Shown here: piece by piece, positions 47,848 to 63,651 of the stretch
Layout: the number at the start of each line of letters is the position of its first letter
How positions within the stretch are numbered: the stretch's first letter is position 1
Source: a virus
Lineage: Duplodnaviria; Caudoviricetes
Length of the DNA stretch: 64,000 nucleotides
IMG/VR virus record: IMGVR_UViG_3300025715_000009
Coordinates: 324,269 to 388,268 of that record
Direction: 5' to 3' (one strand)
Notes under the pieces: generated by a model
What the model saw: the letters and a program-made list of their open reading frames with translations, nothing else
What the model was told of the DNA's origin: nothing
The model's database searches: none
Position numbers and translations under genes: made by a program

Positions 47848-48858
47848 ATGAAAATAAAACAATTTAATCAAGAATTAGATGAAAGCTTTACAAGTTTATG
47901 GAAAGGTGCAAGAGATGCTCTTAAGGTTAGAAAGCTTGGAAAAGAAGCAAAAAAAGAAGGTGAAAAAGAGGTTTATGATACTTATAATATAAGTGAAATA
48001 AATAAGTTATTAGCTAAACTTAAAAACATAGCTTATGGTTTTTATATTGCCATTACACAACCTGGTGCAAATCAAAATAAAATACATATAGCAATAGGTA
48101 AATATGAACAATTTCTAAATCAGGTAGAATTTTTATATAAAAAAATTATACCTTCTGAATCATATAAATCTAGAGAATTTACAGGTGATGATGAAGCACA
48201 TGGTTCTGAATATCGGGCAACAACAGAATCATTAATTAGAGAAGGCGCTGGTTTAGATTATTCTTTAAATAATATAAAAAATTCATTACTTAGATATAAA
48301 AACCTGTTAAACATAATGAAACAAGTTGATGTAGAAGAAAAAACTACAGTTAAAAAATTTATTAATGCATATAACAATTTAGGAAAAATACCAGAAAAAC
48401 CAGTTGCTGAACCTAAACCAGTTGAACCATCTGTTGAAGATTTTGAATCAAGTAAAACTGAAGAGCCAGAAATTAAAAATACTACAAAACAAATAAAAAT
48501 AAAAGATGATTTTTTAAATGATGAAGAAATATTGGATTTATATAATTTCTTTAAATCTTCCATAACTGAGGGTATAGAAGAAGTACCAAGTGCATTTATT
48601 GAATGGCTCTCTCAATCTGCATCTACTATGAGTGAATTTGTTAAAGATAAAAATCATTTTATTGAATTAGTTAAAAAAGGAAAATTCTTAGAAGACATGA
48701 AAAATAATTTTCCTAATTTATATTCTAAATTACAATCAGATACAGCTAAACCAGAAAATAGTTTAGACACACAAATTATAAAATTAAGAAATATTGCTAA
48801 AGAAAACCCTGAAAAAGCCAAAAATATTTTGGACATCTTAAATAGAGAATTAAGCTAA
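47848..48858 (+). CDS. hypothetical protein
   Basis: 336-aa ORF with GAGG RBS and AGATAA motif upstream. Confidence 0.65.
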   Translation: MKIKQFNQELDESFTSLWKGARDALKVRKLGKEAKKEGEKEVYDTYNISEINKLLAKLKNIAYGFYIAITQPGANQNKIHIAIGKYEQFLNQVEFLYKKIIPSESYKSREFTGDDEAHGSEYRATTESLIREGAGLDYSLNNIKNSLLRYKNLLNIMKQVDVEEKTTVKKFINAYNNLGKIPEKPVAEPKPVEPSVEDFESSKTEEPEIKNTTKQIKIKDDFLNDEEILDLYNFFKSSITEGIEEVPSAFIEWLSQSASTMSEFVKDKNHFIELVKKGKFLEDMKNNFPNLYSKLQSDTAKPENSLDTQIIKLRNIAKENPEKAKNILDILNRELS

Positions 48859-51800
48859 ACATCTACAATTACATTAGTTGTTTTGTGTCCTACTAGATTA
48901 ACAAAGTTGCCATCATTCTCTATTCGAGCAAATATGATTTGACCTTTCTTTAAAGAGAATACATCTCCATTTTTCCAAGTCCATGCATAAATAAATGGCT
49001 TGGATTTTGTTTCATCTCTAAGTGTCAATAATACATAATCTTTGCCGGTTTTAGTTTTTTTGACAATAGCAGATTCAATCTTACCAATTACAAAATAATT
49101 ACCAGGGTCATCTACTTCATAAATATAATTTATTGGTTTACCAGTTGCATCTGATAATGATTTTCTCATATCTACATAAGATGATAACTCAGTTAATGAT
49201 AATTGACAATATTCCTCTTCTTTCTCAACAAGTAATTTATATGATGATATTTCTGGTTTATATTTTCTGTCTTTTCTAAGATTAGTAAAAATATAAGAAT
49301 GTAGAGCAAAACGATCTTCAAATCTTTCATCAATAAATTCATCTAATGCACCAGACCAAACAAGAGCATCTACAGCACTCTTGTTTAAATTAGAATTTGT
49401 TTTACTATTTTCTGTTATACGATCATAAAAATCTTCTATACTATTAAACTTGCCTTTCTTTCTTTCAGATAATATCTTAGAAATAGTGTTATCAGGCAAT
49501 GATCTAATAAAAGACAATCCCCAAGAAATTGTTTCATCATCAATCAAATCAAAATCATAATTTGATGAATTTACATTTGGCTGCGTAATAGTCATGCCTC
49601 TACCCATTATTTCTGTAGCATAAATAGAAATTAATGATTCTCCTTTTTTCTTACTTCCTTTACTTGTGTTATTTAATAGAGCAACATTAAATTCAGGACG
49701 ATAATATGCTTTAAGCCAATATTCTCTAAATGAAGTATAAGTATAAGCAACAGAATGCGAAAGGTTAAAAGCATAACCCGAAAAGTTTGCCATTAAATCC
49801 CACATGTCTTGGGCTTCCATTTTGCCGCCAAGCCCGCCTTCATTTAATGGACGAGATGCATTTTGTATAAATTTATCATATAATGGTTTTAATGATTTAA
49901 TATAGTTAGGATCATCAGATGCAGATTTACCTAATTTAGTAATAAGTCGACGAAGATTGTTAGTTTCTCCTTTACTAAAATTAGCAGCAAATTCTGCAAT
50001 ACGCATCATCTGCTCTTGATAAACCATTAATCCGAATGTTGGTTTTAAAATATGTTTAATAGAAGGAGGTATATCATTCTCAGACCAAACTTTTCCATTT
50101 TCATCAGCTCTACCAAATTTTCTGTCTGCATATATTTCTGGAATTCCCATTGACAATGTTCCAGGGCGAATAAGAGCGGATATGTCTGATAACTCTGAGA
50201 ATTTGTCTGGTTTAATTAAATTAAGAACTTTAATTGCGGTGTTGCTTTCAAACTGAAAGATGCCATAATGATCACCAGCTTGCACAATGTTTTTGTAGAC
50301 AAATGGATCATCTAAATTCTGATCAATGTCCTCTGTTTTTATTGTCTTCCCTCTTCGTCGTTTTATTAACTTAATTGTATCATTAACTACTTGAAGGTTG
50401 TTCAAGCCAAGAATATCAAATTTAGCATAACCAAGATCTGACAATTCATGACCAGATGCTCCTTCGAGCCAACCAGTCACGATATTTTTTTTAGACTGAA
50501 TAAGAGCAACTGATTTGGTTAAGTCTTCAGAAGAAACAAGAACACCAGCAGCATGTGATCCTGCTTGACGATGAGCACCTCTCACTCCGTTAATAAACCA
50601 ACGTATGGGCATTTTTTCACTATCATATTTATTTAAAAAAGAACGTAAAGATGGGATTTCACTCTCTAATTCATTTAAAGGAGCAACATCATTAACATCT
50701 TGTGGGATCTTTTTAGTAATAGGAAAAACATCAGCAGGCGGGACACCACAAACACGAGCAACATCTTGAATCGCTGACTTTATTTTGAGCATTCCAAATG
50801 TTCCAATATTGGCGACATGTTCTCTACCAAATCTTTTGATCATATAATTAATAACACTATCACGAATACGAGGTTCGAAATCGCTATCAATATCTGGTAA
50901 ATCTTTTCTTTGTAAATCAAGAAAACGTTCGAATAGAAGATCATGTTTGAGTGGATCTACGTTAGTAATTCCTAATAAATAATTGACAAGAGAACCAGCT
51001 GCACTTCCACGACCAGCCCCCACAGAATCTGATCCAAATTTATTTTTTGTCCACCCAATGATATCTTCCATGATAAGAAAATAATCAGTATAACCTTTTT
51101 CAGCAATTACTTTTAATTCAAATCTTACTCTTTCTAAATATTCAGGCTTGTTCTCAAGACCTTTATTTTTTAATCCTTGTAATACTTTTTCAACCAAAAC
51201 TTTTTTACCATTATCATATAGCTTTGGTAGTTTTTCTTTTTTATCCAAATCATATGTTTCTATTTTATCTACAAGCGAAATAACATTATTAATACCTTGC
51301 CAAAATATTTGCTCTGTAAAAATATCAGATTTATGCCACTTCTCCCAAGCTTCATGTAATTCTTCAACATTCTTGTAATAAAATTCTCTACCTTTAATGG
51401 TCCAAATCTTACCTTCTGTATCCTCTTCTAATTCTTTAAATGTTTTATCTTGATCTGAAAGCATTTGCAGTTCTTGAATTCGTGATTCAGATTTTGATAG
51501 ATAATGGGCATCATTGGTAATAACAACAGGGACATTTAATTCTTGGGCTATTTTAATTAATTCCTCATTTAATATTTTTTGTGGTTCCCAATCAATCGGC
51601 ATTAATTCAATATAATAATCTGAGATTGTTTCTTTCCACCATTTAACAATTTCTTTAGCTCGAGTTAAAGCATTTTTTATTAATTCTTGATCATTTTGAT
51701 CCAAGAAATCATTAGCGAATTTAATATAATCTTTTTCATCGAATTTGTCTTGTTGATGAGAATAAAAATATTCATAATCTTGTTGATCTAAATATTCATT

Positions 51801-53000
51801 TTCAGCGAACTTATCTTCATCTTTTGTTTTAAAGAAAGATTTCATTGCTTTGACTTTGTTTTCTACAAGAACTTTTTTATCATATGCACGCTTATCACTC
51901 TCGAGATAAACTTTCTCTAATAAAATACGATTTTGTTCAGCAGTTGCACATCCAGATAAAGCAATTATTCCTTGAGCATTTTGTTTAATAAATTCAGGAT
52001 CACACACCGGGTTGCGATAAAATCCATTTACCCATCCATCATTATGGATCTTTACTAGATTTTTGAATCCATCTAAATTTTTAGCAAATAAAGTAATGTG
52101 TCGAGTTAATTTAGTTAATAATTTTCTATTTGCTTTATTAGTAGGAGAATCATCTTGTAGTGATTTGCGTAAAGCTGCTGATTCACGATTTATATAAGCT
52201 TCCATACCAAGAATTGGCTTCATGCCATGTTCTTTAGCTCCATTGTAAATAGTAATCCAATCACATATATTTCCATGATTTGATGTTGCTATTGCTGGTT
52301 TTCTTTTATTAGCATGCCATTGAATTCTTGTTTCTGGTGTTCCAATTCCATCTTTAAAAGAGAGAGTGTTATGAACATGGAGGTGAACAAATTTCCAGTC
52401 AATTTTTAATTTCTCAACTTCATCTTTTACAGATTGTAATTCTTTAACAGTATTAAAACTAAATATTTTTGTTATATAAGAAAGTTGTTTTCCATCTATT
52501 CTCATCAACAACTCATAAGAGTTTAATCCTTTAGAGATATCAATACGAAATGTTTTTTCAAATAATGATTTTGAATATTCGCCAGTTAAGAAAATAATTT
52601 CAGGTTGTACAATTAATATTTCTTTATATAAAAATCTTTTTATGTGTTGTTTGCCGTCTTTAAAAAGTGGATTGTCTGATTCTGGATCTTTTGGATATTT
52701 AATTCCATATGTAAGATATAAATCTTCTTTACTTAATCCTAAAACACTACAAATATCATCAACATATTTAGATTGTGTTGGGTCTGTATAAAATTGATCA
52801 ATGTCAAATGGAGAAGGGTATGGTCCTACTACCATAAAAGGTGATGGTTTACCTACTGGTAATGATCTTGTTCCTGGTTTGAGAGCAAATTCAGATAATT
52901 CAATGTCTGTAGCGTTTTGTATATCATTAAAAATTTTATCTAATGAAATATCGTTTTTTAATGAATTTGCAAGAATTTGACTTTCTTCTGTAAATGGCAT
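48855..53000 (-). CDS. dnaE: DNA polymerase III alpha (family C) with N-terminal UDG-like domain
   Basis: PHP FVHLHVH, TNDAHY; GAGRGSAAGSLV, PDIDSDF, KFDILGL, GIFQFES, YAFNLSHSVAY; no intein seen. Confidence 0.95.
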   Translation of the reverse strand: MPFTEESQILANSLKNDISLDKIFNDIQNATDIELSEFALKPGTRSLPVGKPSPFMVVGPYPSPFDIDQFYTDPTQSKYVDDICSVLGLSKEDLYLTYGIKYPKDPESDNPLFKDGKQHIKRFLYKEILIVQPEIIFLTGEYSKSLFEKTFRIDISKGLNSYELLMRIDGKQLSYITKIFSFNTVKELQSVKDEVEKLKIDWKFVHLHVHNTLSFKDGIGTPETRIQWHANKRKPAIATSNHGNICDWITIYNGAKEHGMKPILGMEAYINRESAALRKSLQDDSPTNKANRKLLTKLTRHITLFAKNLDGFKNLVKIHNDGWVNGFYRNPVCDPEFIKQNAQGIIALSGCATAEQNRILLEKVYLESDKRAYDKKVLVENKVKAMKSFFKTKDEDKFAENEYLDQQDYEYFYSHQQDKFDEKDYIKFANDFLDQNDQELIKNALTRAKEIVKWWKETISDYYIELMPIDWEPQKILNEELIKIAQELNVPVVITNDAHYLSKSESRIQELQMLSDQDKTFKELEEDTEGKIWTIKGREFYYKNVEELHEAWEKWHKSDIFTEQIFWQGINNVISLVDKIETYDLDKKEKLPKLYDNGKKVLVEKVLQGLKNKGLENKPEYLERVRFELKVIAEKGYTDYFLIMEDIIGWTKNKFGSDSVGAGRGSAAGSLVNYLLGITNVDPLKHDLLFERFLDLQRKDLPDIDSDFEPRIRDSVINYMIKRFGREHVANIGTFGMLKIKSAIQDVARVCGVPPADVFPITKKIPQDVNDVAPLNELESEIPSLRSFLNKYDSEKMPIRWFINGVRGAHRQAGSHAAGVLVSSEDLTKSVALIQSKKNIVTGWLEGASGHELSDLGYAKFDILGLNNLQVVNDTIKLIKRRRGKTIKTEDIDQNLDDPFVYKNIVQAGDHYGIFQFESNTAIKVLNLIKPDKFSELSDISALIRPGTLSMGIPEIYADRKFGRADENGKVWSENDIPPSIKHILKPTFGLMVYQEQMMRIAEFAANFSKGETNNLRRLITKLGKSASDDPNYIKSLKPLYDKFIQNASRPLNEGGLGGKMEAQDMWDLMANFSGYAFNLSHSVAYTYTSFREYWLKAYYRPEFNVALLNNTSKGSKKKGESLISIYATEIMGRGMTITQPNVNSSNYDFDLIDDETISWGLSFIRSLPDNTISKILSERKKGKFNSIEDFYDRITENSKTNSNLNKSAVDALVWSGALDEFIDERFEDRFALHSYIFTNLRKDRKYKPEISSYKLLVEKEEEYCQLSLTELSSYVDMRKSLSDATGKPINYIYEVDDPGNYFVIGKIESAIVKKTKTGKDYVLLTLRDETKSKPFIYAWTWKNGDVFSLKKGQIIFARIENDGNFVNLVGHKTTNVIVDV

Positions 53001-53406
53001 TATTATTCCTCTTGATGATAAGTATGCATTTTAGAATGCTAAATAGATTTTTTTAATATTGTTATCTGTTCTTATTTCTAAATTGCCTATTTTAGAATTG
53101 GATAATTGTTCAGCAATTTTTCTAGCAACAGATTCGCAAAACATTGTAAAATGCCCAGATAGAATTGTGCCGTTTATATAAAAATCATCGACTAAAAATT
53201 CTGCCATTTCTTGAAGTTGTTTTCTACTATTGGAAAGTTGTATATCATCTACTTTTTTGAATGTACGATAAGCTATAGATAAGAGCATAGAAAGATCTTC
53301 TTTGCGATTGTATCGTACTATTTTTTCATATATACGAGCGAACTTACGTCTTTTAATTTTAGATTGTGGGAGATCTTGCATTAAAAAATCCCACTTAGAA
53401 ATAATA

Positions 53407-54252
53407 TTATTTTCTTTTTCTGTCATGTATTAAATCTCTCGTTATCTCCAATGCTGCTTCAAATGGATATTTACATTGCCAATCTAGGAGTTTTGTTTTT
53501 TCTCTTTCAATATAAATAGGTTGATCATTGATTTCTTGAATATCATAATGTAAATCAATTTCCATTTTATCCAGCATATAATCAATAATCTCTTCTAAAG
53601 ATTTTTCTTGCTGATCCATGATTTCTATTGACTTATACATATATAGGTCAATATTGTTTAAAACCATATCCAGACCATCAAGAAAGTCATCAATAAAAGT
53701 ATATCTTTTAGAAGATTCTAAGTTAGTAAAAATTTTAGCAGTATCAATTCTTCCTACACTAGACATTAACAATTGACTTACACTCCCGTGAAAATCTTCT
53801 GGTCCAAATAATTCATCAGTGATAATATCAATATATTTAACACCAATTGTATCAAACATAGATAAAATTGAATCTTGTGTCCAATTAAAAATAGCATTAT
53901 TATGTTTGTTATATCTAATAAATATAACAGGGATATTTAATTCATATGCTATTTTAGCTATGTAATAACTACCTTCTAAATTATTTCGTATCATCCAATG
54001 AGATTTTTCTTTATCATGAGTAATCATAGTCGCAGTATGAAGAATGCAATCTATTTCAGATCTTTCCATAATAGTTTTCAATGTTGGATCAAAAATATCA
54101 ATCTCAGGATAATGTTCTGGAGAGAATTTTTTCTGTCTCCAGTAATTATACACATCATTTAAATGAGAATTTTCAATCGTGTGTTTATGTGAAAGATGTC
54201 TAACAAATGCTCTTGCCACAAAACCACTTTCGCCGGTAATCCAAACATTCAT
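53407..54252 (-). CDS. NAD-dependent epimerase/dehydratase-like protein (extended SDR, degenerate)
   Basis: VWITGESGFV, ILHTA, N..G, LFGP, FIDD; no clear YxxxK. Confidence 0.7.
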   Translation of the reverse strand: MNVWITGESGFVARAFVRHLSHKHTIENSHLNDVYNYWRQKKFSPEHYPEIDIFDPTLKTIMERSEIDCILHTATMITHDKEKSHWMIRNNLEGSYYIAKIAYELNIPVIFIRYNKHNNAIFNWTQDSILSMFDTIGVKYIDIITDELFGPEDFHGSVSQLLMSSVGRIDTAKIFTNLESSKRYTFIDDFLDGLDMVLNNIDLYMYKSIEIMDQQEKSLEEIIDYMLDKMEIDLHYDIQEINDQPIYIEREKTKLLDWQCKYPFEAALEITRDLIHDRKRK

Positions 54253-54866
54253 AACTGTTTCTCCTTCTTACTCCACCATGGAGATTTTATTATTTTATAA
54301 TATTCCATTGTCCCATTTAAATAACCTAAAATTTGTATTTTAGTAAGAAAAGATAAAAAGTTTTGTAAAGTTATGAATGTATGAATTGTATTATATCTAT
54401 ATCCTTCTTTTAAACCAATCATTTCAAATGGTCTACCATTTGCTACGCATGTATGATAAAATGTTTCCATTGTTTTTCTCATTATAATTCGTGCCTGAGA
54501 TGGATCAGAAATATCTCCATCTGGAAATAAACAGTAATAACCACCACGATAAGAAAGTAATGCTTTTTGAGACACCCAAGTCCCTCTTACAACATTTATT
54601 CTTATAGGATCTACTGTTGCAATATTTTCTGTATCTTCTGGATAAAGAAAAATATCTCCACCTTTTAATCTAGCTAATCTAGAACAATGAATAATATTTC
54701 CATCTATTCTAGAACTAAAAGTTGGATTATTTGGTAATAGTGGATCAAATTCTGTTCTTAATGCTTTAAAACCAGAATTTTCTAGTATATAGTTTAAGAC
54801 GGCCTTCTCTGCCTCTTTACCATAAGAATCATAATTTTCCAATATTACACCTCTTATTATATATGC

Positions 54867-55739
54867 TTATTTAGCTGATCCATATAACCATCTAAAAATA
54901 AAATAATCCGATCCAAACCCTTCATTTGGATTTTCTATTTCTTTAATTATTTCATTTATTTCATGGTTTGGTTCACCTTTTTCGTTTATTAAGTCTATAT
55001 CCAAAGGTGGTGTTTGATATTCTTTAAAATCATAATTTAACATATTTTGAATTTGTTCAAAATTTCTTTCATAAACATGTAAAGAGTGTGCAATATGAGT
55101 ATAAGTTCCAAGTTCTAATTCTGGATATACTTTTTTTAAATGTCTTAACATTTGTTGTTGAAGCATTGTAAAAAATGGATAATCAAATGTTAGTCCAAAA
55201 AATATATCATTACTTCTCATATCTACTGTAAAATTTAATTTATTATTACGAATTTGAAAATTGCCAATTAGTGTACAAACAAAATCTTTTACACCATAAT
55301 ATTGATGAGCAGGTCTATTAAAATGCATAATAGCCTGTCTTGAATCTTTGTCTGCAACTAAGCAATTATAAGCCCATTGAAATTGGTTTATCTTTTGTGC
55401 ATTATCTTTTTGAATAAACAATAAATTGCCATAAGCAGAATTACATGTTCCATCTTCATTAGCAATTCCATTCCAAAAAGATGAAAATCTGGATATAAAA
55501 TCTAAATCATTTCTACCAGAAAAGTACCACAATAATTCTCCAGCAAGATATTTTAATGGAACATCTCTTGCTTGATTTAGAAATAGATTAGATGCTGGGT
55601 TTTTATTAATTAAAATAGCATCACTTATTTCTTTTATTTTTTGTCCTCTTGGAGCAGTTTCATATTCTGGTTTATACATTAATTCAAGACATATATTTTT
55701 ATATAACTCAGCAAAATTATTTCCCCGTATGACTCTCAT
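54867..55739 (-). CDS. thymidylate-synthase-fold enzyme, predicted dCMP hydroxymethylase
   Basis: ELLWY.SG, NSAYG, DSRQA, DFVCT, MRSNDIFFGLTFD with Asp at the position of E. coli ThyA Asn177, SLHVYE. Confidence 0.85.
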   Translation of the reverse strand: MRVIRGNNFAELYKNICLELMYKPEYETAPRGQKIKEISDAILINKNPASNLFLNQARDVPLKYLAGELLWYFSGRNDLDFISRFSSFWNGIANEDGTCNSAYGNLLFIQKDNAQKINQFQWAYNCLVADKDSRQAIMHFNRPAHQYYGVKDFVCTLIGNFQIRNNKLNFTVDMRSNDIFFGLTFDYPFFTMLQQQMLRHLKKVYPELELGTYTHIAHSLHVYERNFEQIQNMLNYDFKEYQTPPLDIDLINEKGEPNHEINEIIKEIENPNEGFGSDYFIFRWLYGSAK

Positions 55740-56341
55740 TTTAACCCCTGAAGTTTAGCTATTAATATATCAAAATAATCTACTCTTTGTGCAGTTGATC
55801 CAAATATCTCTATATCAATTGGTTTATTTCCATAAACTGGAAGAATAAAAAATTCATAAATAGTAATTATATCATTAAATAATTCATACTCTATGTCAGA
55901 TGAACGAAATGTTAATGTTATACTCCTCTCTTTATAATGAATAAGTGATAGACATGAGACATCAAAAGCTGAATCTTCGGCTTTTTTATAATCAACAAAA
56001 GAATTTGCCACTCTAACTAATGCTCTCCTTGTTTTAGGATTTTTATCTAACATTTTTTTCACATTGTTGATTATTTCTTGATATGATAGTCCATTTCTTT
56101 CCTGTACAGAATAAGTATATATGCTTCCATATAACTTGTCAATCGAATTGAAAAACCTTAAAGAACCTCTTTGTTCAAGAAATGGTTCAAATCCATTTTT
56201 TGTAATATCTAAATCTGCAAACTTTTTTCTTTTAAGATCTAAATATGGATTTTCAACTTTGGTTGATAAAGAAAAAGATTTCAAATTAATTAAATATGAA
56301 TCATCTTCATTAAATGGTTTTTTTATTATATCAATTTGCAT
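55736..56341 (-). CDS. second, truncated thymidylate-synthase-fold protein
   Basis: KTRRALV, DVSCL, FRSSD......FND (also Asp at the 177-equivalent position). Confidence 0.7.
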   Translation of the reverse strand: MQIDIIKKPFNEDDSYLINLKSFSLSTKVENPYLDLKRKKFADLDITKNGFEPFLEQRGSLRFFNSIDKLYGSIYTYSVQERNGLSYQEIINNVKKMLDKNPKTRRALVRVANSFVDYKKAEDSAFDVSCLSLIHYKERSITLTFRSSDIEYELFNDIITIYEFFILPVYGNKPIDIEIFGSTAQRVDYFDILIAKLQGLK

Positions 56342-56955
56342 TATTTCAATCCTAATGTAAATTCATAGATTCTTTGTTCCATTTTTGATTGATCTTTTAT
56401 AACATCATACTCAATAAATTTTTCTTTATTATTAATAACTCCTTTAGATAATATTTGCATTAATTTATATTCGTTTTCTTGTGTAAGAGAAAGGTTTTTT
56501 TGAGTATATTCATCTTGTCTGGTTAATGTTGAAATTGGATTTAGAAAATAAATATAGTTATATAAATAATTACAATTTTCTATCATTGTATTATATAAGA
56601 ATGATAGAAAAGCATGATATTTTTTTAAATCATCACAATCTAATGTACTTTTATCTACATAAAATGTATAATAAAAATAACTATCAATTAATGATCTATC
56701 GCATAAAACAATTTTATTATTATGTTTTGAATTTATTAAATTCTCTGCTTCTATCTTAGCAGAAATGATTTTTATTTCAAGATCTAAATAAGCTTTTGGA
56801 CTTTGACGAATAGTATCAATATCTCCTATGTCAAGATTACGAATCTCTTCATTTAATAAAATAACATTATCTGGATACTTTTTTTTTATGGTCTCCATAA
56901 ATGTTGTTTTACCAGAATGAGAAGCCCCAGATAATGCTATTATTAAATTATTCAT
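56341..56955 (-). CDS. P-loop nucleotide monophosphate kinase-like protein
   Basis: GASHSGKTT, LCDRSLID. Confidence 0.8.
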   Translation of the reverse strand: MNNLIIALSGASHSGKTTFMETIKKKYPDNVILLNEEIRNLDIGDIDTIRQSPKAYLDLEIKIISAKIEAENLINSKHNNKIVLCDRSLIDSYFYYTFYVDKSTLDCDDLKKYHAFLSFLYNTMIENCNYLYNYIYFLNPISTLTRQDEYTQKNLSLTQENEYKLMQILSKGVINNKEKFIEYDVIKDQSKMEQRIYEFTLGLK

Positions 56956-56958
56956 TTT

Positions 56959-57207
56959 TTATTCCATATCATCATCATAGTCATCGTAATCGTTTTCTCC
57001 ATCTTCATCATCATATTGATAATCATCGTCATCGTCATTATAATTTTCATCATTATAATCTTCATCGTCATAATCTCCATCTTCATCTTCTAAATCATCA
57101 TCTTCATCATCATAATCTTCATCTTCTAAATCATCATCCTCATAATCATCACTTTCTTCAAGATTGTATTCTGGATCATCATAACAGTCTTCGTAATTCA
57201 TATTCAT
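56959..57207 (-). CDS. extremely acidic Asp/Glu/Tyr-rich small protein
   Basis: AAGGAG RBS; 82 aa with no Lys or Arg. Confidence 0.7.
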   Translation of the reverse strand: MNMNYEDCYDDPEYNLEESDDYEDDDLEDEDYDDEDDDLEDEDGDYDDEDYNDENYNDDDDDYQYDDEDGENDYDDYDDDME

Positions 57208-57253
57208 CTCCTTTTAATCAAAATATGCCAGGTTTATTAGACCTGGCACTAAT

Positions 57254-58990
57254 TTATTCTTGATATGTTCCAATGATTAAATATGGTTTTTTAAGACCAA
57301 GCTCCTGAGCTCTTCCAAGCTGGTATTTAAAATCATCAATTGCATGTTCAACAGATAAGACAATTGGTTTACCATGAACATTATATGATGTATTAATAAG
57401 AGCTTTTGCTGTACCTTGAATTTTTTCAAGTATAAGAGATACGGTTGATCCATCAAGATCAACTACTTGTGGACGCCCTGAATAAAGTTCCTCATCTGGA
57501 TATTTATGCATTATACCTGAATAAAGATCGCAATGATTAATTGTATAATCATATGTAAGAATCATAAATCCATCAGATCCAATTGTTTTGTTAAATTGTT
57601 TTTCATCAAAGAAATAACTCAAATTATGTCTAAGCATAATAGGAGCCATAGGCATAACCGTATTTCTCTTATTGTAAGTATTAATCAATTCAACGTTTTC
57701 TTTATAGGGGATAGAATAAGTTGTTGTATGGCACAAAGCTCTTGGACCAAACTCCATGCTTCCAAGAACAACTTGAGGAATCTTGTTATTCTTTAATAGA
57801 TCAACAATTCTATTTACAAGAGATTCTTTATTGTGATAAATTTCTACATTCTCTGGAAGAGAATTTACATCAAGCTTCTCTACTTCGCCTTTAATATCCC
57901 TGTGTCCCCAGAAAAGATTAGAAAAATCAAATGGGCCAATGTTTTTAATATACATTCCAATTGCAGCACCTTGATCACCAGCAAGAGGAATAACACTAAA
58001 CTTTTCACTCAATCTCTCAAGTTTATTATTTAACTTCACGTTGTAGAAAATTCCACCATTGACAAGCAATGTCCCTGGAGAATGTTTCTTTACAAAATGG
58101 CTTGCAACTTGTTCAAGAACAGTTTGAATAAAATTACCGATAATAACACGTTTATTAAAATTTTCTGGATCATCAACAAATTTGATCTTGGATAAAAGAG
58201 AATCAAACTTCTTTTGATATTTTTCTTTGACTGAATTTAACAGCACTACATTAACATATTTTGAGTCAATTGATTTTGGTATTTTAGTTGAATGTTCAAG
58301 TCCTTCAATCATTTCTTGAGAGAATTTATCCGCCTCCATATGAAGAAGAGCATAACTCTCATCATCAATAACTTCATGGATGTGTGATTCATATCCAAGG
58401 AATTTGTACTCATCTTGATTTTCAGTCATACCTGTATAAGATGTAGCATATTGATAGAAAAGACCAAGAGAATTTTCATAACCATATGCTCTATGGAAGA
58501 GATCAACATGTCTCATTCCCAATTCATCATAAGTAAGCCCATAAAGAGACATTACTTCTTGTTGATTTCCAAAACCATCAGCTACTAAAATAAGAGCATC
58601 TTGATTTCCACCCTTATGGAACTCATAAAATCCAGACACTGCATAGGCGTGAGCATCATGGTGTGTAAAATCTTTGGATAGAGAAATTACTTTAAAATTG
58701 TAATCTCTTTTCAATGATTCAATATAATCATTATTCCAATATTTTTCATGAATTTTTTGATGATTATTGGTTTGGAAATCATAATCATCAAACCAGTGAG
58801 ATACAAAAACAACATTGTCTTCGTCTTTTGTTGGCTTGGCAGCTTCAATGCATTTAATAGCACTGATAAGCGGGAAGATAGAACAACTCTTGAGTCGTTC
58901 ATGTCTTTCTTCTTCATAACCAGCAATAACTTTACCATCACGAACAGCAACAGCTGATGAATTATGTCCAAGTGTCAATAGTAATTCCAT
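57254..58990 (-). CDS. carbamoyltransferase (NodU/CmcH/TobZ family)
   Basis: GHNSSA, EEER, HHDAHA, DGFG, SLG.FY, GD.G.AIG, EFGPRAL, INTSYNVHGKPIV. Confidence 0.93.
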   Translation of the reverse strand: MELLLTLGHNSSAVAVRDGKVIAGYEEERHERLKSCSIFPLISAIKCIEAAKPTKDEDNVVFVSHWFDDYDFQTNNHQKIHEKYWNNDYIESLKRDYNFKVISLSKDFTHHDAHAYAVSGFYEFHKGGNQDALILVADGFGNQQEVMSLYGLTYDELGMRHVDLFHRAYGYENSLGLFYQYATSYTGMTENQDEYKFLGYESHIHEVIDDESYALLHMEADKFSQEMIEGLEHSTKIPKSIDSKYVNVVLLNSVKEKYQKKFDSLLSKIKFVDDPENFNKRVIIGNFIQTVLEQVASHFVKKHSPGTLLVNGGIFYNVKLNNKLERLSEKFSVIPLAGDQGAAIGMYIKNIGPFDFSNLFWGHRDIKGEVEKLDVNSLPENVEIYHNKESLVNRIVDLLKNNKIPQVVLGSMEFGPRALCHTTTYSIPYKENVELINTYNKRNTVMPMAPIMLRHNLSYFFDEKQFNKTIGSDGFMILTYDYTINHCDLYSGIMHKYPDEELYSGRPQVVDLDGSTVSLILEKIQGTAKALINTSYNVHGKPIVLSVEHAIDDFKYQLGRAQELGLKKPYLIIGTYQE

Positions 58991-58993
58991 TAT

Positions 58994-59725
58994 TTACTCC
59001 TTTATTAAATCTTTGTAATATTTAATTCCATTATCAATATCATGTCTATATATCCAATAAGATGGATGAAGAACTTTTTTACATTCTATGTTTTTGTTTT
59101 TTAAGAAATCATATACGTTTGCTCCTAATGCCAATATTTTGTTCGGTTGTAATAAATCAATTTCATTTTTTAGAATTGGCCAATATTTTTCATAATTTTC
59201 TTCATATGATTCATTCATCTTTTGTTTTTCTACGGCCATTTTACTTGCATTGGTAAAATATATGCTTTTTAACTCTTTAAAAAAACCTTTTCTTAATATT
59301 TCTGAAGTATTTTGAAAAAAGAATGATGGTTTAAATGGTTGTGAAATTAAGTCATCTGCATCTCCTGTATAAAAACCTGCTGCCATGCCTATTACAAATA
59401 TGCCACCTTTACCTATATAACCACTGCCTATTGATATTAATTCATTATCATTTGGCGTAAGAATTGTTTGAACATCATCATATAACTTATGGCGATTATA
59501 AATATCATCAGAATTAAAAGAAAATTGAAATGGGCAGTATTTTAAGAAAACATTAATAATTTCTGAAATAGAAATATCTTGCAAATTAACAAAAAAATCT
59601 CTATCACGAAATTGTTTTTGATATTTATCCAATATCATATTGACCAATTTTTTATATGATAGAGTTTTGTTTTCGTGAGTAAGCATAACAATATCATATA
59701 TCAATTGTTTTTCATTCATGCACAA
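58994..59725 (-). CDS. uracil-DNA-glycosylase-superfamily protein
   Basis: IFVIGMAAG, YFTNASK, L.NEI.LLQP.KILALG, LHPSY. Confidence 0.75.
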   Translation of the reverse strand: MCMNEKQLIYDIVMLTHENKTLSYKKLVNMILDKYQKQFRDRDFFVNLQDISISEIINVFLKYCPFQFSFNSDDIYNRHKLYDDVQTILTPNDNELISIGSGYIGKGGIFVIGMAAGFYTGDADDLISQPFKPSFFFQNTSEILRKGFFKELKSIYFTNASKMAVEKQKMNESYEENYEKYWPILKNEIDLLQPNKILALGANVYDFLKNKNIECKKVLHPSYWIYRHDIDNGIKYYKDLIKE

Positions 59726-60434
59726 CCTTCTGCAAAATCTATTGCCATTTGCTTTGCGTCTTCTATAGTTTTAGCGGTCCACTCACCATGACCCCATTTT
59801 TTTGGATATGGTGCGAAGTGATTAAATTTTAATTTTTTTCTATCATCTCTTACATAAACTTCATATTCTATGTAAATACCTAATTCATTATTCTCTTTAT
59901 GATTAACATCTAATTGTATTAATTTTTGATCAATTACATTATCATCATCAGTAAATTTTCTTATGCAATTACCATCTCTATCAAAATCCCAAAATCTTAA
60001 TATATCTTCAATAAAATTTTCTTTATTATCTGGATTATAAGCAATATCACCTTTTTTTACTTGACTTCCTATTGTAAATCTATAAAATGCTCTTGCCCAC
60101 CCATACCATATCTGATCTTGTTTATTGAATCCAATTAAACAACATGGTGATCTTTTTAAATCTAATTTTGGTTTGCCTAACAATAAATTCTTGGCTTTTT
60201 CATCCATAGAGAGGGTCTTTACAGCGGAATAATCATGTGTTGGATAAAATTCTGTAATGCCAAATTTTTTATTTAACCGATATGCTTGTTCGCTATTCCC
60301 TATATAATATAGATCTGGCCATGAATAGGAGCTGTGCATTACAATGTGAGGACTTGGCATATCATGCCATATTTCATTCACAAGAACATATCCTCTATTT
60401 TTAAACACTCGTGTTGATAAAATTTCAGTATCCA

Positions 60435-60686
60435 CTATGACTCCCAATATTCACAAATATTTTCTTCTGATAATGGTAGACCTTTTAATTTAAATTGATA
60501 AAATTCTTCAGAACTTGGAGATATTTTATATATTCTTTTTGCTCTTAAGAAGGAATGACAAGATGGCCTTGCATTGCCACCTTGATATTCACTTATAAAA
60601 CTATTATGATAATAATAACAATTAGTACAATTATTATTTAATAATAGATTTTTTGCTTTTACTTTATCACTTTCCAGTTGATCCAA
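60435..60686 (-). CDS. small Cys-rich AKxLLL/CxxC family protein
   Basis: AKNLLLNNNCTNC...C...NICEYW. Confidence 0.65.
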   Translation of the reverse strand: MDQLESDKVKAKNLLLNNNCTNCYYYHNSFISEYQGGNARPSCHSFLRAKRIYKISPSSEEFYQFKLKGLPLSEENICEYWES

Positions 60687-61176
60687 AGCCGCCTTCTCCT
60701 CTATGAGAATCTTGCTTCATCCAATCATATAAACTATCTTCTTCACATTCTGTGAGATCACAGGATAAAATTGGCACCAAAGTCATTTGAGTTAATTTCA
60801 TATTTGGTGTAATAATAAAATCACTCTCACCAACATTATGGAGGTCAATATGTACTTCGCCAGAATAAAAAACATCTATAACCTGAGCACCAATAAGAAC
60901 ATCTTTTTTAGAGGCGACACCACTTTTATTAAGAAAGAGCCCCATATACCCAAATGGTATTTCTACTTTTATGCCTGATGGGATGCAAGCATTTTGCCCT
61001 GGTTTAATAATAATTTTATTATCTGCTACTACGATACCATCATTTGCTTCTTGTTTTTCAAAGTCAACAATAAAAGCATCGTCAAATTCTGGACAACAAA
61101 AATCTATGCCAGCATCAGTAGCATGTCCTCTGGCCGGTGTTTTTACATTTCTTGTTTTTGCGAATTTTAATAACAT
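60667..61176 (-). CDS. dut: dUTPase (trimeric family)
   Basis: DAGID, KSG, VID..YSGE, Q, RGEGGFGSTG. Confidence 0.92.
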   Translation of the reverse strand: MLLKFAKTRNVKTPARGHATDAGIDFCCPEFDDAFIVDFEKQEANDGIVVADNKIIIKPGQNACIPSGIKVEIPFGYMGLFLNKSGVASKKDVLIGAQVIDVFYSGEVHIDLHNVGESDFIITPNMKLTQMTLVPILSCDLTECEEDSLYDWMKQDSHRGEGGFGSTGK

Positions 61177-61421
61177 TTTTTACTCCTATTTTTCATTTTC
61201 TATAATAAGAAATAATAATTCACTATCTTCTATAGGTGTTATACATATACCAATAAAATCATCAGATTGATAATCAATATCATAATACTTTATCAATTTA
61301 TTTTCTTCATATTGATGTAATATATTATGGGCTAAAGCAATTTTTTCATCTGTTTGATTGTCAAATTCAAAATTTTCAAAAATAGAATCTAATTTTTCTT
61401 GTATCTCTTGTTTTATATCCA

Positions 61422-61940
61422 TTATTCTTCATTTACCTGTATACAGGGCACCCCATTCTCTTCAAGGAATTTTATACCTCTTGTATCCCTTTCATATAAT
61501 TTATTATAATATACGTTTTTTATTCCTGCTTGTAATAGTGCTTTAGCACAATCAATACATGGAGACCAAACAACATATACATCTGATCTATTTGTAGATA
61601 TACCATTTTTGGCAGCAAAGATTAAAGAATTCATTTCACTATGAACTTCGTTCTCTATAGCAAATTGATGATGTTCCTCTTTTATATCTGTGGAATTCAT
61701 CCATTTATCAAATTCTTGATCATAATCACCAGGCTCTATTCCAGATTTTACTATGTCAAATTTTTCTTGAAAATGATCAATGCAATGTTTTTGGCCATGA
61801 GGAACACCATTCCACCCCATTGAGATTATTCTTTGATCTTTTACAATTACTGCACCCACTTGAATACGGGCACAAGTAGAACGCCGTGCTACTTCTTTGG
61901 CTATTCGAATAAAAAGTTGATGTGTTCCTATTCTTTTCAT
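61422..61940 (-). CDS. dCMP deaminase
   Basis: RSTC.R.QVGAVIV, G.NG, HSEMN, SPCIDCAK. Confidence 0.92.
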   Translation of the reverse strand: MKRIGTHQLFIRIAKEVARRSTCARIQVGAVIVKDQRIISMGWNGVPHGQKHCIDHFQEKFDIVKSGIEPGDYDQEFDKWMNSTDIKEEHHQFAIENEVHSEMNSLIFAAKNGISTNRSDVYVVWSPCIDCAKALLQAGIKNVYYNKLYERDTRGIKFLEENGVPCIQVNEE

Positions 61941-62604: not shown

Positions 62605-62798
62605 AAAATATGTTCACTGTGTTCTGTTGTGTCCTCTTCCCAACAATCGCATATATTATCTAATGTCTTTAAGATCATATCATTTTTCTTACATTTCCAA
62701 CAAGAATCATTAATAGGATAAAATAATGCTCTAAAATAAATGCAATTCCCACAATTATTTCCTAATAATAAATGTTTAGCAGCATGATCAACATCCAC
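62595..62798 (-). CDS. small Cys-rich AKxLLL/CxxC family protein
   Basis: AKHLLLGNNCGNC...C...NICDCW. Confidence 0.7.
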   Translation of the reverse strand: MDVDHAAKHLLLGNNCGNCIYFRALFYPINDSCWKCKKNDMILKTLDNICDCWEEDTTEHSEHILWK

Positions 62799-63651
62799 TT
62801 ATATTATCCTTGTTATGATGAGCAAACCAACATTGTTCTCTTAATGGGCATAATTTTGCTTTTTGTATATTTTCTTTATTCTCCTCAAGAATTTGTGATA
62901 ATGATTTTTCTTTTAATGAGCCTAATGATTCAACTATACGATGAGATTGACATAGACGAACCGTAGCATCTGGCATAATAGTAATTTCATTTTCAACTGC
63001 CGTGCATTGATAATCTTCTTTTGTTATCCATTTTAGTAAATAATCCAAGTTTTTTTGAGTTAATATACCATGCTTATTTAATAAAGAAATATGATCACGA
63101 CTTAATGGTGGCCATGTAAATTGCTCATTATTATAATAATAACCTTTTTGATATATATTAAAGTAGGGTTGTTTCATTTTTGGATAGAGAGATAAAAACC
63201 TTTGCATCGTTAGAGCATCTATATCTAAAAATGAAATATTATATTGGCTAATTGTATATGATAGACGTTGAATAGTGTTTTTTGATTTAAAGGTATTTAA
63301 TAAATAAATTAAGTTAGTAGTATAAGGTTTTCTGCCTCTTATAGTATCATTTAAAAATCCATCCCAATGAATAGATAGATATGGGATTGTTCTATCATAA
63401 GATAGTAATTTATCTACATCTTCAAGATATGTTGTAAGAATATAATTTTTATTTTTAAATATATCTAATATTTGTTTGAAATCAGGTCGTAATGTTGGTT
63501 CTCCTCGAAGGATAAAAAGATCTTGTTCATTATATAATGATTGTATAATTCCTCTATCTAATTGTTGTTGAGAGATAAGAGATGGTTTATTATAAGATAC
63601 GAAATAATCATTCAAGAACAAGGATATTTTCATTAAAACTCCGCTACCCAA
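62788..63651 (-). CDS. degenerate radical SAM/SPASM-domain protein
   Basis: GEPT.RPDF, SI..DG...D.IRG, C...ITIMPD.TV.LC...LGSL...C....C; CxxxCxxC absent. Confidence 0.6.
   Translation of the reverse strand: MGSGVLMKISLFLNDYFVSYNKPSLISQQQLDRGIIQSLYNEQDLFILRGEPTLRPDFKQILDIFKNKNYILTTYLEDVDKLLSYDRTIPYLSIHWDGFLNDTIRGRKPYTTNLIYLLNTFKSKNTIQRLSYTISQYNISFLDIDALTMQRFLSLYPKMKQPYFNIYQKGYYYNNEQFTWPPLSRDHISLLNKHGILTQKNLDYLLKWITKEDYQCTAVENEITIMPDATVRLCQSHRIVESLGSLKEKSLSQILEENKENIQKAKLCPLREQCWFAHHNKDNISGC

Follow-up and report, generated by a model that had tools for sequence, protein, structure and literature searches.

Modified bases in phage DNA protect it against restriction enzymes and CRISPR nucleases, and have also given rise to tools for epigenome sequencing. 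In phage T4, 5-hydroxymethylcytosine (5hmC) is made by a pathway comprising the dCMP hydroxymethylase gp42, the dNMP kinase gp1, the dCTPase gp56 and the cd deaminase, with glucose as the decoration of the base and with dTMP provided by td and frd. Here, we describe a gene block of a jumbo phage that encodes two thymidylate synthase (TS)-fold proteins (TS1 and TS2), a nucleotide kinase and a carbamoyltransferase, and that lies in a stretch of 64,000 nucleotides (the window) forming the last 64 kb of the 388,268-bp IMG/VR virus record IMGVR_UViG_3300025715_000009 (estimated to be 98% complete; GC ~28%).

The closest described system is the 5-carbamoyloxymethyl-dC (5cmdC) route of Yang et al. 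2021 (eLife 10:e70021; PMC8670742), in which a carbamoyltransferase converts both 5-hydroxymethyl-dC (5hmdC) in DNA and free 5hmdCTP to 5cmdC. The assayed enzyme uses carbamoyl phosphate and ATP, and showed no activity on 5mdCTP or 5hmdUTP. Only on modified contigs is its gene accompanied by TS and dCMP deaminase domains, and differential residues were reported at the positions of TobZ W408, G421 and R423. The route was established with a single metagenomic enzyme, and 5cmdC was treated as the final base (PMC8670742). For the TS-fold enzymes themselves, a three-position rule has been proposed (Lee et al. 2026, PMC13326640): Asp at the position of Asn177 in Escherichia coli TS directs the enzyme to dCMP as substrate, an acidic residue at the Leu143 position goes with a hydroxymethyl rather than a methyl product, and the flavin-dependent 5-hydroxy-dCMP synthases, which act on dCMP without one-carbon transfer, are recognised by Asn at the Asp169 position. 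The same study found that dNMP kinases are needed in the pathway.

Judged by its residues and gene content, the block described here is on balance probably a pre-replicative cytosine-replacement operon, transcribed towards a gene for a DnaE-type polymerase, in which TS1, the kinase, the carbamoyltransferase and a set of supply enzymes would act together and TS2 would contribute an extra step.

TS1, the carbamoyltransferase and the kinase

TS1 (290 aa; positions 54867 to 55739 on the minus strand, as for all genes of the block) was identified as a TS homologue of the dCMP hydroxymethylase type. It matched PF00303 (E 2.1e-23; 83 bits against a cut-off of 24.3), and was the only match to this family in the whole genome. 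Its closest PDB sequences were the CMP hydroxymethylase MilA (E 3.7e-21) and T4 gp42 (E 7e-17), with ThyA entries behind. TS1 and its relatives were then aligned with T4-like gp42 and, as a control, with the dUMP hydroxymethylase of phage SP10. The catalytic C155 (Cys146 in E. coli TS numbering, used throughout for TS positions) was invariant in this alignment and paired with gp42 Cys148; D152, three residues before it, occupies the Leu143 position, D178, within the motif MRSND, corresponds to Asp169, and D186 corresponds to Asn177, a column in which TS1 and T4-like gp42 carry Asp and the SP10 enzyme carries Asn. This is the full residue pattern of a T4-type 5-hydroxymethyl-dCMP (5hm-dCMP) synthase, and TS1 is predicted to have that activity; because the Asp169 equivalent is kept, it would not be a flavin-dependent 5-hydroxy-dCMP synthase. 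The nearest TS1 relative in the phage collection is encoded by a 462-kb uncultured huge phage (LR756500.1, 47% identity), and in the region fetched from that genome TS1 is the only gene in common with the locus.

A ThyX gene was found ~5 kb before the window (G000:C1:319093-319671, E 8.9e-52), apart from the modification operon. Since the genome encodes ThyX, dTMP synthesis is covered without TS1, and a role for TS1 as the dTMP maker was discarded on this ground. No dihydrofolate reductase was detected in the family search of the phage's own genome, which, together with the single PF00303 match, agrees with enzymes that do not produce dihydrofolate.

The carbamoyltransferase (578 aa, 57254 to 58990) is of the NodU/TobZ type and has both expected domains, Carbam_trans_N and Carbam_trans_C (PF02543, E 8e-14; PF16861, E 9e-21), in addition to matching phrog_1601 (E 8.5e-56). 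It aligned over its full length with TobZ (residues 9-554), NovN and GdmN, and full-length homologues with 37-38% identity are encoded by Bacteroides fragilis phages, Acinetobacter phages and Xanthomonas phage Xp15. The first two of these groups have an Asp-type TS gene at a distance of one to three genes from that of the carbamoyltransferase. A similar linkage is seen in the window, where the carbamoyltransferase gene is upstream of TS1 and three genes away from it, and in the related loci L009, L018, L019, L020 and L021. By its domain architecture and gene context, both of which liken it to the assayed enzyme, the window protein is a predicted 5hmC carbamoyltransferase. An earlier interpretation of this DNA, made from its letters and open reading frames (ORFs) without database searches (hereafter the sequence-only reading), had proposed that the genome carries 5hmC or carbamoylated 5hmC; the three-residue signature of TS1, the full-length TobZ-type carbamoyltransferase and the presence of ThyX all speak for such a 5hmC-based, probably carbamoylated, cytosine pathway.

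The kinase (204 aa, 56341 to 56955) resembles P-loop kinases of the dNK/thymidylate-kinase type, with a match to AAA_28 (E 4.7e-9) and weak matches to Thymidylate_kin and dTMP-kinase models. When searched by tblastn against 50,697 phage records, it matched only Bacteroides phage genes that adjoin the carbamoyltransferase gene and gave no match to phage 5-HMUDK genes; a phmmer search against PDB sequences returned nothing useful. Its predicted role is that of a 5hm-dCMP kinase, on the model of T4 gp1 and of the dNMP kinases required in the pathway of Lee et al. 2026.

TS2, a family of compact TS-fold proteins

The gene between those for the kinase and TS1 encodes TS2 (201 aa, 55736 to 56341), whose start overlaps the kinase stop (56341) and whose stop overlaps the TS1 start (55736-55739). 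TS2 had no match in Pfam at E <= 0.01, including to the PF00303 model, and its sole family match was to TIGR03283 (E 9e-4), far under the cut-off of that model. BLASTP of TS1 against its two neighbouring ORFs likewise found no similarity to either, TS2 included. An AlphaFold (AF2) model of TS2, built on seven homologues (pLDDT 79, pTM 0.82), was assigned to thymidylate synthases by Foldseek (probability 1.0, E ~3e-5), and its VIA Z-scores against T4 dCMP hydroxymethylase (10.6), the 5-hydroxy-dCMP synthase AfhB (9iqc; 10.5), MilA (10.0) and ThyA (~9.4) were effectively tied, with alignments (Z 9-10.6) spanning 165-186 residues. Going by this model, TS2 is a true TS fold. Profile comparison using hhalign paired TS2 residues 62-164 with TS1 residues 87-193 (probability 92.6%, E 4.6e-7) and placed Y75 at Tyr94, R105-R106 at Arg126/127, C130 at Cys146, R146 at Arg166, D149 at Asp169 and D157 at Asn177. 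The relationship between TS1 and TS2 is thus visible only at the level of profile and structure. The sequence-only reading had assigned both TS-fold proteins a catalytic Cys and an Asp at the Asn177 position, and these are indeed present as C155 and D186 in TS1 and as C130 and D157 in TS2.

A full HMMER scan of 1.84 billion representatives recovered 99 clusters of TS2-like proteins, essentially all of 190-230 aa and none of them an ordinary TS. Since the whole family is of this length, the short length of TS2 is native; the description of the second TS paralogue as truncated in the sequence-only reading has to be replaced by that of a complete member of a distinct 200-aa family. Across 45 diverse members, K37, Y75, C130, R146, D157 and Q185 are invariant, and D127, at the Leu143 position, is kept in 43. 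At the Asp169 position (D149) Asp is found in 39 of the 45 and Asn in none. The position of Gly173, one of 12 residues within 6 Å of C5 in ThyA (PMC13326640), is occupied by Glu in 42 members (E153 in TS2) and by Asp in the other 3, and the Ser167 position by Ala in 44. The phosphate-binding Arg pair, which reads Arg-Gln in TS1, is Arg-Arg in TS2, with R105 kept in 38/45 members and R106 in 42/45. The TS2 model covers only residues 1-230 of E. coli TS and is without the C-terminal lid, and a conserved Trp of TS1 is aligned by hhalign with a Phe in TS2.

We read this pattern as that of an enzyme that would bind a cytosine mononucleotide and attack C6 via Cys130, with the C5 and cofactor side of the pocket remodelled, and we infer a loss of folate binding. 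Because the lid and the folate-holding Trp residues (Trp80/Trp83) appear to be lost and a conserved Glu sits beside C5, we think that TS2 carries out an extra, folate-independent step on the C5 substituent. No match to TS2 was obtained by tblastn in the 50,697 phage records, and no paper describing a second enzyme of this type, or chemistry beyond 5cmdC, was found in the literature.

Gene order was compared across related loci. L005, L009 and L019 are close relatives with the gene order of the window. In L020 the order is UDG-like (uracil-DNA glycosylase-like), carbamoyltransferase, kinase, TS2, dut, TS1 and deaminase, and in L018, which holds one of the most distant TS2 members, it is carbamoyltransferase, UDG-like, kinase, TS2 and TS1. 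L021 and L022, 35-kb contigs with VapE-type and SNF2 replication genes, carry a carbamoyltransferase gene, a 153-aa kinase-like ORF, TS2, an all-alpha dUTPase-like ORF, a TS gene and an exonuclease gene. In L003, a 413-aa fusion of the kinase and the UDG-like protein (L003:1543-2784) is followed by TS2, TS1, an SDR-like gene, a 131-aa ORF and DnaE, and L016 (L016:1-291) probably holds a second such fusion. The order kinase-TS2-TS1, alone or preceded by the carbamoyltransferase, was found in L003, L005, L009, L018, L019, L020 and L021, with the kinase gene immediately upstream of TS2 in all loci seen. TS2 therefore always travels with TS1 and the kinase, and nearly always with the carbamoyltransferase, and the order carbamoyltransferase-kinase-TS2-TS1 recurs across unrelated phage backbones. 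A dUTPase-family gene also recurs in these modules, between TS2 and TS1 in L020 and after the TS gene in Bacteroides phage BF503P1.

Proposed route and alternative explanations

In the route that we propose, TS1 would convert dCMP, methylene-tetrahydrofolate and water to 5hm-dCMP, as its residue signature suggests. The P-loop kinase would raise this product to the diphosphate, in the manner of T4 gp1, a host NDP kinase would complete 5hm-dCTP, and DnaE would incorporate it. With the 2021 enzyme as precedent, homology and gene context suggest that the carbamoyltransferase would O-carbamoylate the hydroxymethyl group at the expense of carbamoyl phosphate and ATP, giving 5-carbamoyloxymethylcytosine, either on the nucleotide or on single-stranded DNA. 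The dCMP deaminase (by supplying dUMP), the dUTPase and ThyX would feed dTTP to a genome of 28% GC and hold dUTP low. TS2, finally, would bind a cytosine mononucleotide, place Cys130 on C6 and perform its folate-independent step at the C5 substituent.

Several observations weigh against parts of this proposal. No dCTPase was found in the genome (no MazG and no dUTPase_2 match), and the one PRA-PH match was weak and interrupted by a stop; because of this, full replacement of cytosine is not assured, unless the trimeric dUTPase-like enzyme hydrolyses dCTP. A carbamoyl-phosphate synthetase was likewise not found in the phage genome, so that carbamoyl phosphate must come from the host pool. The 7.4-kb L003 contig, which represents a TS2 lineage, contains no carbamoyltransferase gene, and the TS2 profile found nothing in the regions fetched from cultured carbamoyltransferase phages (Bacteroides phage BF503P1 and Acinetobacter phage MD-2021a). 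As these phages have a carbamoyltransferase and no TS2 in the regions fetched, TS2 is not required for carbamoylation as such. TS2 may also fit as a second folate-dependent hydroxymethylase, since it has the same three-residue signature as TS1.

An unlikely alternative, yet one with a chemical precedent, is that carbamoylation serves as activation: the carbamate of 5-carbamoyloxymethyl-dCMP, or else a phosphate that the kinase has attached, would leave while Cys130 of TS2 is at C6, and the C5 methylene would capture a nucleophile. The residues for covalent catalysis and the cytosine switch that TS2 retains, its apparent lack of a folate lid and its conserved Glu or Asp at the Gly173 position are in line with such a reaction, as is the location of TS2 beside the carbamoyltransferase and kinase genes in almost all lineages seen. 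The loss of a leaving group from a C5 methyl with a thiolate on C6 has been described (PMC8989533), and the 2021 carbamoyltransferase also accepts the free nucleotide 5hmdCTP. However, no gene for a nucleophile donor was identified and the SDR-like protein of the operon looks inactive, the L003 lineage has TS2 with no carbamoyltransferase in view, the carbamoyltransferase phages without TS2 in the regions fetched show that the carbamoyltransferase is independent of it, and Yang et al. 2021 take 5cmdC as the final base. Taken further, TS2 would represent a new class of TS-fold enzymes, independent of folate and acting on an installed C5 substituent, in which carbamate or phosphate leaves and the methylene is captured, 5-carbamoyloxymethylcytosine would be only an intermediate and the real base would be undescribed; we regard this wider claim as doubtful. 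A TS is an obligate dimer in which each active site borrows two Arg from the other subunit, and it appears rather improbable that TS2 serves TS1 as a partner or regulatory subunit, either in a heterodimer or in a kinase-TS2-TS1 channelling complex, where it would give phosphate-binding Arg or pass 5hm-dCMP to the kinase. The start and stop overlaps of the three genes suggest coupled translation, and the Arg-Gln of TS1 set against the Arg-Arg kept in TS2 would suit a shared site, but Arg-Gln is also found in the SP10 enzyme and in one TS of BF503P1, phages without TS2, and the invariant catalytic Cys, Tyr and Asp over 45 diverged members argue for catalysis rather than scaffolding. Prediction of a TS1-TS2 complex scored 0.00 in both runs, made without controls, and is evidence neither for nor against the heterodimer at which the sequence-only reading had hinted.

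Two further explanations concern the substrate and the chemistry of the TS-fold proteins. That one of them belongs to the flavin-dependent 5-hydroxy-dCMP synthases of the RB69 gp48 or AfhB type, the base being a derivative of 5-hydroxycytosine, is very unlikely. Asp-177-type TS homologues were for a long time mis-called hydroxymethylases (PMC13326640), and AfhB is among the best structural matches of TS2, tied with T4 gp42; against this, the Asp169-to-Asn change is absent (D178 in TS1; D149 in TS2, with no Asn among the 45 members), and the assayed carbamoyltransferase requires a hydroxymethyl acceptor. Still less credible is ordinary dNTP supply or a thymidine modification of the 5hmU type, with the TS-fold enzymes acting on dUMP and the deaminase, dUTPase and UDG supporting thymidine metabolism. 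The genes for a dCMP deaminase, a dUTPase and a UDG-like protein do share one operon, and fusions of UDG and polymerase have been reported in phages whose genomes carry modified T (PMC13697223), but the Asn177 position is Asp in both TS-fold proteins and Asn in the dUMP hydroxymethylase control, ThyX already supplies dTMP, no helix-hairpin-helix aGPT-Pplase is present, the kinase has no tblastn match to 5-HMUDK genes, and the assayed carbamoyltransferase refuses 5hmdUTP. A 5hmC-based route, probably with carbamoylation, is the reading retained here.

Companion genes and known systems

The core genes are part of a minus-strand block (53031-61940), a single tight co-directional array that runs into the DnaE-type polymerase gene. 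In total, 15 ORFs were called on the minus strand from 61940 to 48855, with neighbours overlapping or separated by at most 46 nt throughout. They are transcribed in the order dCMP deaminase, 78-aa ORF, dUTPase, 83-aa ORF, Tad6-like, UDG-like, carbamoyltransferase, 82-aa acidic protein, kinase, TS2, TS1, 197-aa ORF, SDR-like, 131-aa ORF and DnaE. All the genes named in the sequence-only reading were located on this strand upstream of dnaE, at the positions it had given, and the Tad6-like, 197-aa, 131-aa and two small ORFs (78 and 83 aa) come in addition to that list. A GC-rich hairpin (57225 to 57249, minus strand), which lies in the 46-nt gap between the carbamoyltransferase and acidic-protein genes and was picked up by the consensus scan alone, is a possible terminator or attenuator; the scan gave 6 terminator-like sites compared with 4.0 +/- 2.2 in shuffles. 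Site counts in a Sigma-70-type promoter scan were not above chance.

At the head of the block, the dCMP deaminase (172 aa, 61422 to 61940; PF00383, E 4.6e-22) is conserved in L010, L019 and L020, and the trimeric dUTPase-family enzyme (169 aa, 60667 to 61176) matched PF00692 (E 4e-14) as well as, below cut-off, the NCBIfam dut model (E 1e-24). The 78-aa ORF (61186 to 61422) had no family match, PADLOC included, and is weakly conserved in L010 and L019; the 83-aa ORF (60435 to 60686) also had no family match. A PADLOC search of six unassigned ORFs returned no match. A 287-aa protein encoded at 62788-63651 (minus strand) has only a weak SPASM-domain match and is without the N-terminal CxxxCxxC radical-SAM motif; it is conserved (56-73% identity) in L010 and L019, where its gene lies just upstream of the deaminase gene. 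In L010, a UDP-galactopyranose mutase-like gene is found upstream of the cluster together with a 550-aa dCMP deaminase bearing a long N-terminal extension (L010:2761-3819 and L010:5557-7209); no match to UDP-galactopyranose mutase (GLF) was obtained in the window's own genome.

The Tad6-like protein (243 aa, 59716 to 60447) was recognised by PF25188 (E 1.3e-30; 106.8 bits against a cut-off of 27) and has a ~90-residue insertion relative to the 145-position Pfam model. Tad6 is a type I Thoeris inhibitor that binds ThsB (PMC13728456), and the window protein is probably an anti-Thoeris inhibitor lodged in the operon, not part of the base chemistry. The adjacent UDG-like protein (243 aa, 58994 to 59725; PF03167, E 1.7e-5) belongs with the family-4 enzymes, as its family profile matched 4zbx (E 5.8e-7) and TM0511 (1l9g/1vk2; E 1e-5) in the PDB. 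Motif A reads GMAAG in the window and its close relatives, with one GMEAG and one GMAPG, and the canonical GEAPG occurs only in the L003 fusion; the base-recognising N159 and the H220-P221 of motif B are invariant. At the positions that we take to bind the 4Fe-4S cluster in family-4 UDGs, the aligned family has no conserved Cys. The protein may remove uracil, or may be a base-flipping or tethering module. It gave no tblastn match in the 50,697 phage records and nothing useful by phmmer against the PDB. An assignment as an aGPT-Pplase was dropped, as those are helix-hairpin-helix proteins (PMC8989533).

The 82-aa acidic protein (56959 to 57207) consists in translation of nearly all Asp, Glu and Tyr and may serve to mimic DNA or as an acidic tether; ORFs of 80-85 aa are found at the same position, between the carbamoyltransferase and kinase genes, in L005 and L009. 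Downstream of TS1, the 197-aa ORF (54249 to 54842) is represented by 2 clusters only among 5.8 billion proteins and is absent from L003. Foldseek gave no significant match for its AF2 model (pLDDT 63) and phmmer against the PDB nothing useful; all nine chains at VIA Z >= 5 have the restriction-endonuclease fold (Z 5.4-7.6), a weak lead that the ORF is possibly an accessory gene with a PD-(D/E)XK nuclease-like fold. The SDR-like protein (281 aa, 53407 to 54252) is a degenerate SDR/Rossmann-like protein in which the Epimerase model (PF01370, E 7e-11) matches only the first ~110 residues (4-111). The protein has no catalytic YxxxK, none being conserved in a four-sequence alignment, and the glycine-rich dinucleotide motif, TGESGFV in the window lineage, has become VNETLPF in the L003 orthologue. 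The protein is probably not an active epimerase by these features, and no glycosyltransferase is encoded within the operon block, which leaves the sugar-linked modification suggested by the sequence-only reading on account of the epimerase without support.

The 131-aa ORF (53031 to 53426), between the SDR-like gene and dnaE, has orthologues in L003, L005, L009 and L019. The DnaE-type replicative polymerase (1381 aa, 48855 to 53000) has PHP, DNA_pol3_alpha, finger and HHH_6 domains and an extra N-terminal region of ~190 aa (52401-53000), which is present in the L020 DnaE and missing from that of L003. Residues 71-150 of this region gave a sub-threshold UDG match (E 4.3e-4); a UDG-polymerase fusion is not claimed, as the Pfam match is below cut-off and hhalign against the UDG-like family gave a probability of 1.8%. 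The L019 DnaE gene is broken up into three or more separate open frames (L019:13699-20392), and the L005 locus has an insertion of a DUF7487/DUF559-type endonuclease-like gene that parts its 197-aa ORF from its SDR-like gene (L005:3902-4915); selfish elements seem to target this operon.

Among described systems, the flavin-dependent 5-hydroxy-dCMP synthases (RB69 gp48, DLP3 gp80 and HY126 AfhB; PMC13326640, 9iqc/9iqu) resemble TS2 in their compact (~234 aa) TS fold, with a Z-score (10.5) as high as that of gp42, and differ in having Asn at the Asp169 position, where TS1 and TS2 keep Asp. The thymidine system of 5-HMUDK and aGPT-Pplase2 (Lee et al. 2021, PMC8989533), in which the aGPT-Pplase2 proteins are amino-acid:DNA transferases of thymidine hypermodification, is like TS2 by mechanism only: a thiolate at C6, a leaving group lost from the C5 methyl and capture of the methylene. 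It operates on 5hmU in DNA, with a helix-hairpin-helix fold and phosphate as the leaving group, and no homology was found; TS2, in contrast, has the TS fold, of the mononucleotide-binding type, and an Asp that would specify cytosine. The TS fold has recently been found in flavin-dependent hydroxylation besides one-carbon transfer, and a third chemistry, if true, would be of interest to enzymologists. TS2 is a good target for biochemistry.

The B. fragilis phages BF503P1, BF486P2 and their relatives (OP172667-OP172672) combine a carbamoyltransferase, a kinase homologue, an Asp-type TS, dut and a second Asp-type TS. Unlike in the window, the two TS paralogues of these phages each belong to the ordinary TS1 type, with no match to the TS2 profile, and UDG-like and SDR-like genes are lacking. 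Most genes of the BF503P1 module (L013, OP172670.1 38510-44539) are annotated as hypothetical. These cultured phages are a ready experimental system in which to look for 5cmdC in the virion; to our knowledge, no virion has been analysed for the 5cmdC route.

Compared with T4, TS1 has the same Cys, the same Asp for Asn177 and an Asp for Leu143, a kinase and a dCMP deaminase are encoded alongside, and the pre-replicative logic is shared. The decoration predicted here, however, is carbamoyl and not glucose, ThyX takes the place of td and frd, no gp56-like dCTPase was found and the polymerase is of the DnaE type. The route of Yang et al. 2021 (PMC8670742) is alike in its two-domain NodU/TobZ-type carbamoyltransferase, accompanied in a phage genome by an Asp177-type TS and a dCMP deaminase, whereas this locus also has a conserved TS-fold enzyme of 200 aa along with a dedicated kinase, a UDG-like protein of family 4 and a degenerate SDR-like protein, and is without a pyrophosphatase of the PRA-PH/MazG type. 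The carbamoyltransferase often travels with the kinase and a catalytically equipped TS2, and the published two-enzyme scheme uses no second TS-fold enzyme; either a step of the pathway has gone unrecognised or its final base is not 5cmdC. The four-gene module, mobile between unrelated phage backbones, could be expressed in E. coli, which makes this question directly testable. Overall, the operon adds a member to the known 5hmC/5cmdC system, and its conserved kinase-TS2-TS1 core with a UDG-like companion is an undescribed variant of it.

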